From contig JAEUWI010000010.1 in the NCBI GenBank assembly GCA_016791475.1, positions 20,352-84,351 of the forward strand: a stretch of DNA of 64,000 nucleotides, read 5' to 3'. The translations under genes and the position numbers were made by a program. Shown here piece by piece: positions 8,347-54,137 of this stretch (the stretch's first letter is position 1; each line of letters starts with the position of its first letter). A model generated the notes under the pieces. That model saw only the letters and a list, made by a program, of their open reading frames with translations, was not told the DNA's origin and did no database searches. The DNA comes from Candidatus Hydrogenedentota bacterium (GTDB lineage: Bacteria > Hydrogenedentota > Hydrogenedentia > Hydrogenedentales > JAEUWI01).

Positions 8347-8422
<76 letters not shown>

Positions 8423-8434
8423 TTTTTATTTTTC

Positions 8435-8510
8435 GGGCCGTTAGCTCAGTTGGTAGAGCAGGTGACTCTTAATCACAAGGTCGGGGGTTCGATCCCCTCA
8501 CGGCCCACCA
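8435..8510 (+). tRNA. tRNA-Lys (anticodon CTT)
   Basis: acceptor GGGCCGT/ACGGCCC, anticodon loop CTCTTAA, GTTCGATCC T-loop, CCA encoded; resembles E. coli tRNA-Lys. Confidence 0.85.
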
Positions 8511-8604
8511 TTTTAACGAATCTTTAGTACACACATCTGAGCCGGCAAATAAAACATGTTTTGCCAGCTTTTTTTTTGGTACTATGGTAGCCCTGCCCCC
8601 GGAC

Positions 8605-8689
8605 GGGCGAGTGGCGGAATTGGCAGACGCGCCAGATTTAGGTTCTGGTACCTCGCGGTGTGCGGGTTCAAGTCCCGCCTCGCCCACCA
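8605..8689 (+). tRNA. tRNA-Leu (anticodon TAG), long variable arm
   Basis: acceptor GGGCGAG/CTCGCCC, anticodon loop TTTAGGT, 13-nt variable arm, CCA encoded. Confidence 0.85.
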
Positions 8690-12497: not shown

Positions 12498-14837
12498 ATG
12501 CCACCCCGTAAACAAACCGCCCGACACGAGACCATGCGATTGCCCCTCCTGCCCCTGAAGGATGTGGTCATCTTCCCGCGCATGGTCGTGCCCCTCCTGG
12601 TGGGCCGTCCCGCCTCGCTGGCGGCCGTGGAAGGCAGCCTTTCGAGAAATCAGCCCCTCTTTCTTTGCACCCAGCAAGACCCGAGCGAGGAGAATCCCCG
12701 CGCGGAAAGTCTGTATTCCATCGGCGTTGCCGCCACGGTCCTCCAGTCCCTGCGCATGCCCGACGGGACGATGAAAGTGGTCGTTGAGGGCCTGGGGCGC
12801 GGCAAGGTAAGTACCTTCTACTTTTGTAAAGACGAAGCCGCCGAGGTGGACGTTCATAGCTTCGAATCCCGTAGTGAGCGCTCCGACAAAGTCGACGCCC
12901 TCGTGCGTACCGTCGTGGGCCAGTTCGAAGACTACGTCCAGCTCTCCCAGCGCATCGCCCCGGAAGTCTTCATGTCGATCCAGGGCATGGACGACCCCGA
13001 GCTCACCGCCGACACCATTTGCGCCTATCTCCCCGTGCGGGTAGAGGAGCGCCAGGGCCTCCTCGAACTCGTCGATCTGGAGGCGCGCCTCGAAAAAATG
13101 ACGTCACTCCTCATGCGGGAGAATGAAATGATCCGCATGGAGCACAGCGTCCGCGAGCGCGTCCGCGACCAGATGGAGCGCGGCCAGCGCGAGCACTACC
13201 TCCACGAGCAGCTCAAGCTCATCCATCAGGAGCTGGGCAATCGCGAAGACGGCGGCGACGACTTCACCGAGATTCGCGGCATGATCGCCAAGGCGAAAAT
13301 GCCCAAGGACGTGAAGGCGAAGGCCGAACGCGAGTTCGCACGCTACGAGCGCATGCCCATGATGAGTCCCGAAGGCGCCGTGATCCGAAGCTACCTCGAA
13401 TGGCTCTGCGACATGCCCTGGGCGAAGCGATCCCGCGATTCGCTGAACCTCGCGCGCGCCCAGGAGGTGCTCGACGAAGATCACTACGGCCTGGAGAAGG
13501 TGAAAGACCTTATCCTCGAATACCTCGCCGTGCGCAAACTCAGCAACTCCACCAAAGGCCCAATCCTCTGCCTCGTGGGGCCTCCCGGCGTGGGTAAGAC
13601 CTCCCTCGGCGCATCCATCGCCCGCGCCATGAAGCGCAAATTTGTCCGCGCTTCCCTGGGCGGCATTCGCGACGAGGCCGAAATCCGGGGCCACCGCCGC
13701 ACCTACATCGGCGCCATGCCCGGCCGCATTATCCAGAGCGTCAAGAAGGCCGGCGTGAAGAACCCGCTGTTCCTGCTGGACGAGATTGACAAGCTCAACA
13801 CGGATTTTCGCGGCGACCCCGCGTCCGCCCTTCTCGAGGTCCTCGATCCCGTGCAGAACAAGGACTTCAGCGACCACTATCTGGAGGTGAGCTTTGACCT
13901 GTCCGAGGTATTTTTTATTGCCACGGCCAACAGCGAGTTCGATATTCCCCACGCCCTCCACGACCGCATGGAAATCGTGAACCTCTCGGGCTACACCCTC
14001 CGGGAAAAGGAGGAGATCGCGCGACTTTTTCTCGTCCCGCGGATGATGACCGACTGCGGACTGAACCCGAAAAAGGTGCGTTTCGACGAGAGCGGCATCA
14101 CCACCGTAATCCAGCGTTACACCCGCGAGGCCGGCGTACGCGAACTGGAGCGGCAGATCGCCCGCGCCCTCCGCAAAGTCGCACGCCGCGTGGTGGACAA
14201 GTCCGCCAAGGGTGATTTTCTGCTCAACGCGGAGACGGTGATGGAGTTGCTTGGCCCGCCCGTCTACAGCGGTCTGCGCGCCGTGGAAGAGCCCGCGGCG
14301 GGCATTGCCATCGGCATGGCCTGGACCCAGGTGGGGGGCGACATCCTTTACATCGAAACCAGCACCATGGAAGGCAAGGGCAAACTGACCCTTACCGGTC
14401 AACTGGGCAGTGTAATGAAGGAATCCGCCGAAGCGGCCTACACCTACATCCGCGCCCACGCCAAGGCCCTGAAAGTGCCCGCCGACTTCTACAAGAAACT
14501 GGACCTCCACGTGCATGTGGCCGAAGGCGCCGTGCCCAAAGACGGCCCCTCCGCCGGTACCGCCCTCATCGTGTCCATGGTTTCCGCCCTCACCGGGCAG
14601 AAGCCCAAAGCGGCCCTATCCATGACGGGTGAGATCACGCTGCTCGGCCGTGTGCTGCCCGTGGGCGGCATCAAGGAGAAAGTGCTCGCCGCGCATCGTT
14701 CGGGTGTTCGTACGATTATCCTGCCCCGCGAAAACGAGAAGGATCTTCCCGATGTGCCCAAAGAGGTGCGGGACGAGATCAAGTTTGTCATGGTGGAGTC
14801 GGTGGACGAAGTGATCGCCACGGTGTTTGGAGACTGA
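12498..14837 (+). CDS. lon: Lon protease
   Basis: 779 aa; Lon N domain, Walker A GPPGVGKTS, catalytic DGPSAGTAL...K dyad. Confidence 0.92.
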   Translation: MPPRKQTARHETMRLPLLPLKDVVIFPRMVVPLLVGRPASLAAVEGSLSRNQPLFLCTQQDPSEENPRAESLYSIGVAATVLQSLRMPDGTMKVVVEGLGRGKVSTFYFCKDEAAEVDVHSFESRSERSDKVDALVRTVVGQFEDYVQLSQRIAPEVFMSIQGMDDPELTADTICAYLPVRVEERQGLLELVDLEARLEKMTSLLMRENEMIRMEHSVRERVRDQMERGQREHYLHEQLKLIHQELGNREDGGDDFTEIRGMIAKAKMPKDVKAKAEREFARYERMPMMSPEGAVIRSYLEWLCDMPWAKRSRDSLNLARAQEVLDEDHYGLEKVKDLILEYLAVRKLSNSTKGPILCLVGPPGVGKTSLGASIARAMKRKFVRASLGGIRDEAEIRGHRRTYIGAMPGRIIQSVKKAGVKNPLFLLDEIDKLNTDFRGDPASALLEVLDPVQNKDFSDHYLEVSFDLSEVFFIATANSEFDIPHALHDRMEIVNLSGYTLREKEEIARLFLVPRMMTDCGLNPKKVRFDESGITTVIQRYTREAGVRELERQIARALRKVARRVVDKSAKGDFLLNAETVMELLGPPVYSGLRAVEEPAAGIAIGMAWTQVGGDILYIETSTMEGKGKLTLTGQLGSVMKESAEAAYTYIRAHAKALKVPADFYKKLDLHVHVAEGAVPKDGPSAGTALIVSMVSALTGQKPKAALSMTGEITLLGRVLPVGGIKEKVLAAHRSGVRTIILPRENEKDLPDVPKEVRDEIKFVMVESVDEVIATVFGD

Positions 14838-14896
14838 CGCGGATCCGCGATGGTACCAACCTAATTAGAACGGACTTAGGTTATCGAGGACCACGC

Positions 14897-15112
14897 CGGG
14901 TGCCACCTCAATCGAGCAACGCTCGTTTGGGCGTCATGTGGGAGGGAAAACTACTTGTGGACAAGTGAACTTAGATCCGGCTCGCGATCTAAGGGCGTTT
15001 TTTCATGGGGTTCACCGACGTAAACCAGCCCCCCGCCAGTTAAATTTAAAGCACCAGGGGTACCGCCGCACAAGGCACCCAAACGAGCGTTGCTCGATTG
15101 AGGTGGCACCCG
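14897..15112. repeat. 35-bp perfect inverted repeat pair (14897..14931 and 15078..15112) flanking a 146-bp core; MITE-like or large RNA hairpin
   Basis: CGGGTGCCACCTCAATCGAGCAACGCTCGTTTGGG and its exact reverse complement. Confidence 0.6.
14971..15003 (+). terminator. putative lon terminator hairpin plus T6 run inside the IR element
   Basis: TTAGATCCGGCTCGCGATCTAA hairpin then GGGCGTTTTTT. Confidence 0.45.
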
Positions 15113-15198
15113 AGGTTCCCTTACGGTACCGTTGCTTCGCATTTAACCCGGATTCTATCATTCAATCGCGGCGCCCCGCGTAACAAAGGTATGTCCAA

Positions 15199-15816
15199 GT
15201 GCAGGTAAATTCATCACGATTCGTGCTCAGCGCTCTCGACCCCGCCCACTACCCCAAAGACCGTCTTCCCGAGATCGCTTTCGTGGGACGTTCCAACGTC
15301 GGTAAGTCGAGCCTGCTCAATACCCTGCTCAACCGCAAGGGCCTGGCCAAGACCAGCGGTACCCCCGGCAAGACCCAGACCCTGAACTTCTTCAACATCA
15401 ACGAAAAGTTCTACTTCGTCGATCTGCCCGGCTATGGCTTCGCCAAAGTACCCAAGTCCATGAAGGATACCTGGAACAAAGTCATGGTGGAGTATCTCCA
15501 GACCCGCTCCAATCTCCGCATGGTGATTTCCCTCGTGGACGCGCGCCATGAGCCGAGCCCCCTGGACATCCAGATGCTCAACATCCTTGACGAGGCTTCG
15601 GTGCCCACCCTGGTCGTGGCCACCAAAGTGGACAAGCTCAAGCGCTCCCAGCGCAACAAGTCCCTGAACCTCATCCGGGAAACCCTGGGCCTGCCGGAGG
15701 ACTACCACGTGCTCCCTTTCAGTTCCGTAGATCGCGAAGGGGTAAAGGATCTCTGGGAGGTCATCGAAGATCAGCTTCAGACCCCGGAACGCGTCATCGA
15801 AAATGAAGAGGCGTAG
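15199..15816 (+). CDS. engB: ribosome biogenesis GTP-binding protein EngB/YihA/YsxC
   Basis: GRSNVGKSSLLN G1 motif, DLPGYG G3; follows lon as in B. subtilis lonA-ysxC. Confidence 0.88.
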   Translation: MQVNSSRFVLSALDPAHYPKDRLPEIAFVGRSNVGKSSLLNTLLNRKGLAKTSGTPGKTQTLNFFNINEKFYFVDLPGYGFAKVPKSMKDTWNKVMVEYLQTRSNLRMVISLVDARHEPSPLDIQMLNILDEASVPTLVVATKVDKLKRSQRNKSLNLIRETLGLPEDYHVLPFSSVDREGVKDLWEVIEDQLQTPERVIENEEA

Positions 15817-15896
15817 TGGGGCAGGGGGCGTGGACGGCGCACGGTCGATCCGACCCAACGGCGCCACGGCCCCGGGTCCAGTCGGTCACATCCCTG

Positions 15897-16568
15897 TCAC
15901 GCCACGACCCCGGGCATCGGCGCCAGACGCGACAATTCCTCCCGCTTCTTCCGGGCGATCAACTCCTCTTCATAGGCCAGCGTCGTCAACAGATAGCTGA
16001 AAGGAATGGTCGCCAGCAGGCCTATCCCGAAGCACAGGGCTCCCGCCATGTTCACCGCGATGATGACCAGGCCCAGCACAACCCAACGCTTGAAATTGGC
16101 CCAAACCAGGAGGCGGCTCTTTTCCATCGCCCCCCAGAAGCCGAGATTCTCGTCCAGGATAAAGAGATAGGTCACGGAATAGGTCATAAAGATGAGCAGC
16201 GGTGGAATAACCAGGGGAACTACGATCAGCGCCATGAGATTGATCAGAATATTGGCGAGGAAGGCGGGCAGAAAGTGCTCGAATCCCGAAAGGATGTCCG
16301 CCAGTTCCGTATTTTCGTTGCGCACGATCCGCTGGGATATCTTGAAGGCGCCAAGGATGAAGGGCCCGAGGAGGACGTTGCCGCTGATCGTCAGCAGGTA
16401 GTTGCCGGCAATCATGATCAACAGCAGAATGATGTGGGCACTCACCAACAGCAGGGCGTGGTCCCAGAGCAGCCCGAAGGCCCGGCGGACCAGTGGGCGG
16501 ATGCACAGATCGCTCATGCCGCAATGCTCGACCTCATTCGCGTGTTGGGAAGGCGCTTCGATGCGCAT
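15897..16568 (-). CDS. hypothetical polytopic membrane protein (DUF975/DUF4013-like)
   Basis: ORF track 15897..16724; start chosen at internal ATG (MRIEAPS...) with GGAAAGG RBS; multiple TM helices. Confidence 0.5.
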   Translation of the reverse strand: MRIEAPSQHANEVEHCGMSDLCIRPLVRRAFGLLWDHALLLVSAHIILLLIMIAGNYLLTISGNVLLGPFILGAFKISQRIVRNENTELADILSGFEHFLPAFLANILINLMALIVVPLVIPPLLIFMTYSVTYLFILDENLGFWGAMEKSRLLVWANFKRWVVLGLVIIAVNMAGALCFGIGLLATIPFSYLLTTLAYEEELIARKKREELSRLAPMPGVVA

Positions 16569-54000: not shown

Positions 54001-54137
54001 CCCCCCCTACCCCCCCGCAAGCGGGTGGACCAAGCGGTTCACTTTGACACGTGTGGTTCCCCCCGCAAGCGGGTGGACCAAGCGGTTCACTTTGACACGT
54101 GTGGTTCCCCCCGCTTGCGGGGGGCCACGGGGGTAGG
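54001..54137. repeat. tandem 48-nt repeat (2 copies plus partial) of CCCCCCGCAAGCGGG hairpin + TGGACCAAGCGGTTCACTTTGACACGTGTGGTT, bracketed by inverted CCCCCTACCCCC / GGGGGTAGG
   Basis: seen directly; homologous to element at 36411..36499. Confidence 0.7.

Follow-up and report, generated by a model that had tools for sequence, protein, structure and literature searches.

The inverted repeat between lon and engB in a Hydrogenedentota genome is probably a REPIN of a RAYT-associated REP family

RAYTs (TnpA_REP) are HUH Y1 enzymes related to the TnpA of IS200/IS605, and the mobilisation of REPINs by RAYTs is an inference even in model systems. To our knowledge, REPIN-RAYT systems have been characterised almost entirely in Gammaproteobacteria. 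Other dispersed repeats, i.e., ERIC/IRU, YPAL and the Correia elements of Neisseria, are imperfect palindromes of 100-200 nt that occur in transcribed intergenic regions and form long RNA hairpins. Correia elements have TA duplications and DDE-type terminal repeats, and we know of no link between any of these families and a RAYT. A REP consists of a palindrome and the conserved sequences on its 5' and 3' sides, and two inverted REPs with a less conserved spacer between them make a REPIN (PMC3337134). In Pseudomonas fluorescens SBW25, REPINs are typically about 100 bp long and have spacers of 34-110 bp (PMC3337134, PMC3116915). The tags GTAG and CGTC define two superfamilies of REPs (PMC3733652) and not REPINs as such.

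We analysed a 64-kb stretch of Hydrogenedentota DNA (the window), the longest inverted repeat of which lies between a Lon-like and a YihA/EngB-like ORF. Its arms, at 14897-14931 (+) and 15078-15112, are perfect reverse complements of 35 nt enclosing a core of 146 nt (14932-15077), so that the whole element spans 216 nt. These coordinates and shuffled sequences bear out the original prediction of 35-bp perfect inverted repeats around a 146-bp core after lon: the arm sequence occurs twice in the window, as the two arms only, and gave 0 matches in 100 dinucleotide-preserving shuffles. Arm pairing can be followed over 44 nt at 93%, with three mismatches (14897-14940 with 15069-15112). The folding z-scores of the element, relative to shuffled controls, were -10.7 (+ strand) and -11.2 (- strand), and the predicted RNA stem-loop of the whole element has an energy of about -121 to -124 kcal/mol. 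We interpret this inverted repeat, with a probability of roughly 80%, as a REPIN (REP doublet) of a RAYT-associated REP family of Hydrogenedentales. Family membership, copy number, extragenic placement, arm anatomy, arm conservation and the linkage to RAYTs in related contigs were all observed in this work.

The element begins 59 nt past the stop codon of the Lon-like ORF (12498..14837, 779 aa; the Lon Pfam domains were seen on the L003 orthologue) and ends 86 nt ahead of the YihA/EngB-like ORF (the engB/yihA GTPase gene, 15199..15816). Both genes, and the parts of the element given below, are on the + strand. Homologues of EngB, together with the DNA matches described below, assign the organism to Hydrogenedentales. 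Each arm corresponds to one REP, in which a short palindrome lies between two conserved flanks, and the 5' flank starts with GGGTGCCACC. In the 5' REP arm (14897..14940), the first flank, or tag, is GGGTGCCACCTCAAT (14898-14912); the palindrome CGAGC-AAC-GCTCG occupies 14913-14925, and TTTGGG(C)G(T)C (14926-14935; TTTGGGTGCC in the family description) forms the second conserved flank. The inverted copy, the 3' REP arm (15069..15112), has the flank GGCACCCAAA (15074-15083), the palindrome CGAGC-GTT-GCTCG (15084-15096) and the flank ATTGAGGTGGCACCC (15097-15111). The 5' arm is supported by helices P1, P2 and P3 of the RNAalifold consensus described below and by pair counts, and the 3' arm by these two analyses as well. 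The spacer between them (14941..15068), which is less conserved than the arms in the alignments, starts with GGGAGG (14941-14946) and contains the core motif of the family, GATCCGGCT(C/T)G (14974-14984). It also contains a terminator-like hairpin, CTTAGATC...GATCTAAG (14970-14993), followed by GGCG and by six T (14998-15003). The hairpin and the T6 run were correctly noted in the original prediction, and the family alignment (columns 150-195) shows the run only in the window copy and its orthologue L026, i.e., it is not a feature of the family.

Sequence shared by the family and additional base pairing extend beyond the arms, to about 14830-15140. The 5' flank common to other copies (14830..14896), delineated from the upstream alignment of 26 copies and from the fold of the spacer, includes GAGACTGACGCGG (14830-14842, common to L028, L032 and L026), GCGATGGTACC, which is one strand of the outer stem (14847-14857), AACCTAA/TTAGGTT, which forms a small hairpin (14858-14882), and the family-shared part ATCGAGGACCACGC. 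The TGA stop codon of lon (14835-14837) falls within GAGACTGACGCGG. When the whole spacer between the genes is folded, 14847-14857 pairs with GGTACCGTTGC at 15125-15135, in the 3' flank (15113..15140), as an outer stem of 11 bp. The approximately 50 nt ahead of engB (about 15150-15198) are conserved with L001 and L002 and lie outside the repeat. Two candidate signals were rejected. GGGAGG is not the Shine-Dalgarno sequence of a small ORF: its bases pair in the fold, and the reading frames that follow it lack conservation. ATGGCAC, in the 5' flank, was considered as a sigma-54 promoter and has no -12 element.

The original prediction proposed a search for further copies, and these exist: a 20-mer of the arm matched at least 36 loci in three Hydrogenedentales genomes, with 14 in the 7.9-Mb chromosome OW818658.1, 11 in the MAG bin.359 and 11 in a Lake Mendota MAG. 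The window DNA belongs to none of these genomes and itself contains a single copy of the family (nhmmer). The scan used one genome per species and matched 37 stretches; one arm had to match the seed exactly, so these numbers are lower bounds. A match in a Zetaproteobacteria MAG (L039) was attributed to chance: it lies inside a coding region, and about one random 20-mer match is expected. The loci provided 27 complete copies of 207-224 nt, 28 with the window copy, and the remaining ones were either incomplete or cut by the end of the fetched block. In the 48 loci that we fetched, the distance from arm to arm was always 207-224 nt. A segment of about 150 nt adjoining the element is itself repeated three times in L018 (3173-3323, 6794-7046, 7156-7305) and found once in L014 (1636-1887). 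A blastn search against plasmids gave no match, and a literature search for the arm sequence and for repeats of Hydrogenedentes returned nothing relevant.

All 28 complete copies have the two inverted, pairing arms and, between them, the less conserved spacer. When oriented by the core, all copies have at the 5' end GGGTGCCACCTCAAT, a small palindrome and TTTGGGTGCC, and at the 3' end GGCACCCAAA, a small palindrome and ATTGAGGTGGCACCC. Most 5' arms carry the palindrome CGAGC-AAC-GCTCG. One arm, usually the 3' one, often has another (CGTGC-GTT-GCACG, CGTGC-GTC-GCACG, CCCGCC-GGA-GGCGGG, CCCGCC-CGA-GGCGGG or CCCG-CTGAGA-CGGG). In alignment A2 (columns 100-110 and 288-300), with the copies oriented by the core, 12 copies had the variant palindrome in the 3' arm and about three had it in the 5' arm (L004, and probably L019 and copy 1 of L042), an asymmetry that is only partly informative since the search demanded one canonical arm. 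Where the palindrome was replaced the two arms are unable to pair at that position, yet each keeps its own hairpin. The palindromes of the two arms change independently, through compensatory substitutions or by being replaced as a whole. Invariant flanks around a palindrome that is conserved only as a structure are the anatomy of a REP as described (PMC3337134).

These patterns are reflected in the consensus fold of the 28 copies. RNAalifold predicted a four-way junction, not one continuous stem, made of P1 (16 bp), P2 (the palindrome of the 5' arm), P3 (the inner stem) and P4 (the palindrome of the 3' arm). Whereas 13 of the 16 pairs of P1 are invariant, P4 covaries (AU 15 / UA 9 / CG 4, and GC 24 / CG 4). 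The covariation score was 0.094 versus 0.049 in shuffles, none of 500 shuffles reached 0.094, and 93.7% of the cells were paired on the junction structure versus 28-41% when partners were slid by 1-3 columns. In the window copy, both palindromes are complementary to each other, and the continuous stem (-121.4 kcal/mol) is predicted to be favoured over the four-way junction (-93.4 kcal/mol); the continuous stem would therefore be the more stable form of a free strand. The core motif GATCCGGCT(T/C)G is nearly invariant across copies. For the core, a MAFFT alignment yielded weak helices only, with 73.9% and 88.1% of the cells paired, and we claim no structure for it. L019 is probably mis-oriented in alignment A2, where its core motif is reversed; the arm helices are unaffected.

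Six pairs of orthologous loci between genomes allowed us to compare the conservation of the different parts of the element. Identity was 97-98% in the arms, 86% in the core, 70-80% in the outer flanks and about 86% in the flanking coding DNA. Arms that are far better conserved than core and flanks match the published description of REPINs (PMC3337134). The closest paralogues within one genome were at most about 80-85% identical overall, invariant arms included, and so nothing indicates recent copying or mobility. Beyond each arm, conservation between non-orthologous copies continues outwards for about 55-65 nt. The consensus of the 5' outer flank is (TA)GGGAC(A/T)GACGCGG ... ATGGCACTAACC ... 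TTCGAGGNCGACGCC, that of the 3' outer flank is GGTCGNCCTTTGA ... ACTTCGTGATTCTTG, then GTCAGTCCC in some copies, and the two outer flanks pair with each other. In several copies (the flanks of the window copy, L026, L027, L034, L011 and L040) the stop codon of the upstream gene lies within the conserved flank, either as TAG directly before GGGAC(A/T)G or, in the window, as TGA inside GAGACTGAC. The repeat unit thus either borders on the stop codon of the upstream gene or provides it.

RAYTs flanked by REPINs of the same family were found in related contigs, on both sides in L042 and L045 and on one side in L016. A scan of metagenomes for the arm with any palindrome matched three contigs. At L042, family copies at 1246-1480 and 2251-2472 flank an ORF of 188 aa (1647-2213) with the HUH motif PEHVHLV and a C-terminal YTHNNPVRRGL..DWVWSS segment. 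Its product scored 77.8 bits (E 7e-22) with the NCBIfam profile REP_Tyr_transpos, just below the cut-off of 80, and 27.7 bits with Pfam Y1_Tnp (cut-off 23), and weakly matched PDB 4ER8, the TnpA_REP of E. coli (E 1e-3). The RAYT of L045, from another sample, is 94% identical to that of L042. L016, in the Mendota MAG, encodes a distant RAYT (25% identity, tblastn of the fetched loci) that ends 35 nt from a family copy and scored 89.1 bits with REP_Tyr_transpos, above the cut-off. The site of bin.359 (L019 5584-5788) that is orthologous to L042 1246-2472 has a single doublet and no RAYT. This difference fits the loss of the RAYT by recombination between the flanking copies, or assembly collapse. 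We found no RAYT within the 64-kb window. In OW818658.1, which has 14 loci of the family, the only RAYT located (L044) is flanked by a sister REP family and not by the one of the window.

Sister REPs accompany other homologues of this RAYT. Those of L048 (72% identical), L047 (59%), L046 (58%) and L044 (55%) are flanked by sister REPs starting GGGTGCCAC, and the tag common to all REPs of the linked RAYT clade is GGGTGCCAC(C). The GTAG and CGTC tags are absent from the family, where the palindromes are preceded by CAAT and CAAA. The sister REP of L048 reads GGGTGCCACC-CAAT, CTCGC-TTTT-GCGAG and TTTGGGTGC; a one-base deletion in one arm is mirrored in the other (ATTGGGTGGCACCC), so that the arms match in this respect (CACCCAAT / ATTGGGTG), and the family has the core motif reverse-complemented. 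In L047 and L044 the sister REP is GGGTGCCACCCTCAAGC, a palindrome and AGCTTGTGGGTG, and in L046 it starts with GGGTGCCACGGGTAGGCC. The sister REP families track the divergence of their RAYTs. The RAYT homologues of L044 (3800-4700; OW818658.1 4475721-4484281) and L047 occupy the same space downstream of hisD-hisC, in two different genomes. The sister doublet on their flanks is shorter and has GGGTGCCACC turned towards the loop and not the outside.

The linked genes bear directly on the suggestion, made in the original prediction, that the element is a MITE. This was the closest of the three options offered, in that the element is multi-copy, non-coding and presumably non-autonomous. In a classical MITE the arms would be terminal inverted repeats bound by the DDE transposase of a full-length IS and moved by cut-and-paste, and short non-coding sequences with long inverted repeats and many copies are what one would expect of it. 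Some copies even have an outer inverted repeat, GGGACTGAC...GTCAGTCCC, and TA or TAG beside GGGAC. We considered these bases as a TA target-site duplication and rejected it as inconsistent, because in some copies TA or TAG occurs on one side only. No target-site duplication was evident at the arm boundary in the immediate flanks of 26 copies, where no clean empty site was available for comparison, nor was a consistent one found at the outer boundary. This fits mobility of the HUH type rather than of the DDE type. In addition, none of the 48 loci had a full-length IS with the arms as terminal repeats around a transposase: the arms lie 207-224 nt apart and never stand as single terminal repeats around an ORF. 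Each arm has a hairpin with compensatory changes, which would be unexpected for a binding site in double-stranded DNA, and the genes flanked by whole copies encode HUH Y1 enzymes, not DDE ones. For these reasons we regard a classical TIR/DDE MITE as very unlikely.

The lon-engB spacer differs between relatives. In L003, whose EngB is 81% identical, it has 30 nt and lacks the element. In L001 and L002 (EngB 94% identical) it has 261-273 nt and holds unrelated palindromes, sharing with the window only the first bases past lon and the last ~50 nt before engB. The element is thus not fixed at this site among relatives. The spacers of L001 (1179-1350) and L002 (487-660) open with the TAGACTGACGCG of the 5' flank of the family, followed by CGTTACCATGG-TCCTC-CATGGTAACG and a second similar palindrome, both unrelated to the element. 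They may belong to another REP family that occupies this site, or be what was left when the doublet was lost. Conversely, bin.359 (L026, ~86% nucleotide identity) has the element at the same lon-engB site and in the same orientation, 93% identical and with both 35-nt arms unchanged. The original prediction held that a single copy, conserved as it is and with covariation, would point to an RNA structure instead of a mobile element. Many copies exist, and this one is kept at the orthologous site of L026. Such a mixed outcome fits the biology of REPINs.

The orthologous copies also inform on whether the element is an invertible DNA switch, another kind of site-specific recombination site, or a fold-back chimera produced by assembly. 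Perfect inverted repeats around some 150 bp do resemble invertons, and perfect palindromes can arise in assembly. Yet, orthologous copies are oriented alike with respect to their flanks (window and L026, L024 and L036, and others), no recombinase gene lies beside the copies, and the same structure was found in at least four independent assemblies and several metagenomes. This explanation is hardly credible, and the least probable of those we considered. The recombination site proposed in the original prediction would hold only in the sense that REP arms may be substrates of an HUH nuclease, by analogy with characterised systems, and not otherwise.

We then analysed the position of the copies relative to genes. 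ORFs were called with a simple GC3-aware caller of our own, and the placement figures are therefore approximate. All complete copies were intergenic. Of 20 independent loci with genes on both sides, nine were between convergent genes and 11 between genes in tandem; no locus lay between divergent genes. In the tandem loci, the element was co-oriented six times and antisense five times. An apparent orientation bias (upstream gene co-oriented in 17 of 22 loci, p=0.017) was discarded, because convergent regions score as co-oriented either way and the tandem loci split 6 to 5. The real signal in the placement is the avoidance of divergent intergenic regions. The upstream genes are functionally unrelated (PQQ dehydrogenase, S9 peptidase, asparagine synthase, oxidoreductase, alanine racemase, glycosyltransferase, MsrA, ABC ATPase and Lon).

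This placement could also be that of a cis-acting structured RNA at the 3' regions of genes, e.g., a terminator, an attenuator, a stabiliser of mRNA or a platform for protein binding, kept by selection and linked to RAYTs only by history. The 3' end of at least one gene adjoins every copy, and no copy lies between divergent genes. Moreover, the fold is very stable, pairs covary, the arms are more conserved than the neighbouring sequence at orthologous loci, as expected from selection at each locus, and the window copy has a hairpin plus T6 on the strand of lon. Against this, Rfam gave no match at E<=1 in 14000-16000, and at gathering score it matched only three tRNAs in the whole window. The split of six to five between tandem genes shows both orientations, and wobble pairs favour neither strand (28 G-U versus 25 A-C mismatches). 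A few U-G pairs in P3, which we considered as a sign of RNA, were not significant. P1 and most of P3 are invariant in sequence instead of covarying, as would be expected of arms that are each recognised separately, the T-run is missing from copies other than those of the window and L026, and the neighbouring genes lack a common function. We thus consider a structured RNA distinctly unlikely as the primary identity of the element, and part with the original prediction on this option.

The REPIN interpretation suggests a mechanism by analogy with TnpA_REP and IS200/IS605. The palindrome of each REP would fold into a hairpin on single-stranded DNA, for example at the replication fork. The RAYT would recognise this hairpin and the adjacent conserved bases, and would cleave and rejoin the strand through its tyrosine. 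This would very rarely lead to excision or copying of the doublet, through a long-hairpin intermediate and without target-site duplication. In SBW25, precise excision with one palindromic REP left behind has been reported. At the locus studied here, the element would lie within or just after the lon transcript, where the RNA is predicted to form a very stable stem-loop. A secondary effect on the formation or stability of the 3' end of lon, or on read-through into engB, is plausible given the stable predicted fold and the copy-specific hairpin plus T6 after lon. We rate such a role at the RNA level as a side effect rather than as the identity of the element.

Some traits of the family go against a simple REPIN model, namely its size (207-224 nt, about twice that of most REPINs), the conserved core motif ATCCGGCTTG, the conserved outer flanks and the lack of a GTAG or CGTC tag. 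REPINs usually have ~100 bp and a spacer conserved only for its hairpin, which is not the case here. The ATCCGGCTTG motif is kept even in the sister family whose RAYT is only 72% identical. The family might consequently be an enlarged, modular class of REPINs in which core and outer flanks are functional too, either as a second module of recognition by the RAYT or as parts of a structured RNA or DNA element that was co-opted and is kept by selection at gene 3' ends. The option of a co-opted element would explain why arms are ~98% identical at orthologous loci without recent copying between paralogues. We hold this enlarged class to be a tentative possibility, less likely than a plain REPIN and worth keeping in view.

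The window has other repeats. A second palindromic element, at 2476-2546, has arms of 30 nt (93% complementary) and a loop of 11 nt (TTAACCACAGAGAACGCAAAGGGCACAAAG / CTTTGTGCCCTTTGTGTTCTTTGTGGTTAA). Its motif GAACGCAAAGNNCACAAAG was also found in OW818658.1, in L004 (1433-1451) and L037 (7741-7759), and it is probably another dispersed repeat family. A third inverted repeat, rich in C/G (CCCCCCTACCCCCCCGCAAGCGGGTGGA), is found at 54002-54133, with arms of 28 nt (86% complementary) that are 76 nt apart. The window also encodes a cluster of three tRNAs, Gly-GCC, Lys-CTT and Leu-TAG (8347-8689).

The element is of a known kind and opens no new kind of biology. As interpreted here, it represents a clear case of a REPIN-RAYT system in the little-studied candidate phylum Hydrogenedentota. 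Its tag (GGGTGCCAC) is different, its doublet is much larger, and several sister REP families accompany it. These sister families are a natural series for the study of the co-evolution of RAYTs and REPs. For annotation, the REPIN accounts for the oddly long lon-engB spacer and cautions against calling such elements RNA genes or MITEs.

How does this family compare with the described systems? It differs from ERIC, YPAL and Correia elements by having in each arm a hairpin that evolves separately. With IS200/IS605 elements (IS608, ISDra2) and the ORF-less PATEs it would share, by analogy, the HUH Y1 chemistry, the subterminal hairpins on single-stranded DNA and the absence of target-site duplications. 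In IS200/IS605 the element encloses the transposase, with a left-end and a right-end hairpin, both on one strand, on its two sides. Here, whole doublets flank the gene, and the repeated unit is the non-coding doublet. The resemblance to the REP/BIME and TnpA_REP of E. coli (PDB 4ER8; PMC3479197) concerns both partners. The linked proteins match REP_Tyr_transpos and, weakly, 4ER8, with the HUH motif and the C-terminal NPV..G....W.(Y/W)SS segment, and the repeats have an imperfect hairpin with adjacent conserved bases and are placed at gene 3' ends. Unlike in E. coli, there is no GTAG at the foot of the hairpin, the tag GGGTGCCAC(C) is ~5 nt from the palindrome, the palindrome has only 4-6 bp, and the family forms a large doublet, not BIME arrays.

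The REPINs and RAYTs of P. fluorescens SBW25 (groups GI-GIII; PMC3116915, PMC3337134) show both differences from and likenesses to the family. They are from Gammaproteobacteria and not from Hydrogenedentota, and their doublets have about 89-150 bp, compared with 207-224 nt here (128-146 nt between arms). The family of the window has arms of 35-45 nt, a spacer motif common to sister families and conservation over ~55-65 nt outside the arms, unlike SBW25 REPINs, and only about 11-14 copies per genome were detected, which is a lower bound. In both cases two REPs are inverted around a less conserved spacer that forms hairpins, each REP having its palindrome between conserved 5' and 3' flanks, and extragenic copies number tens to hundreds. 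The REPs of SBW25 are 94-99% conserved while their spacers differ, and REPs or REPINs of the same family flank the RAYT gene, as they do the RAYTs linked to the family described here.
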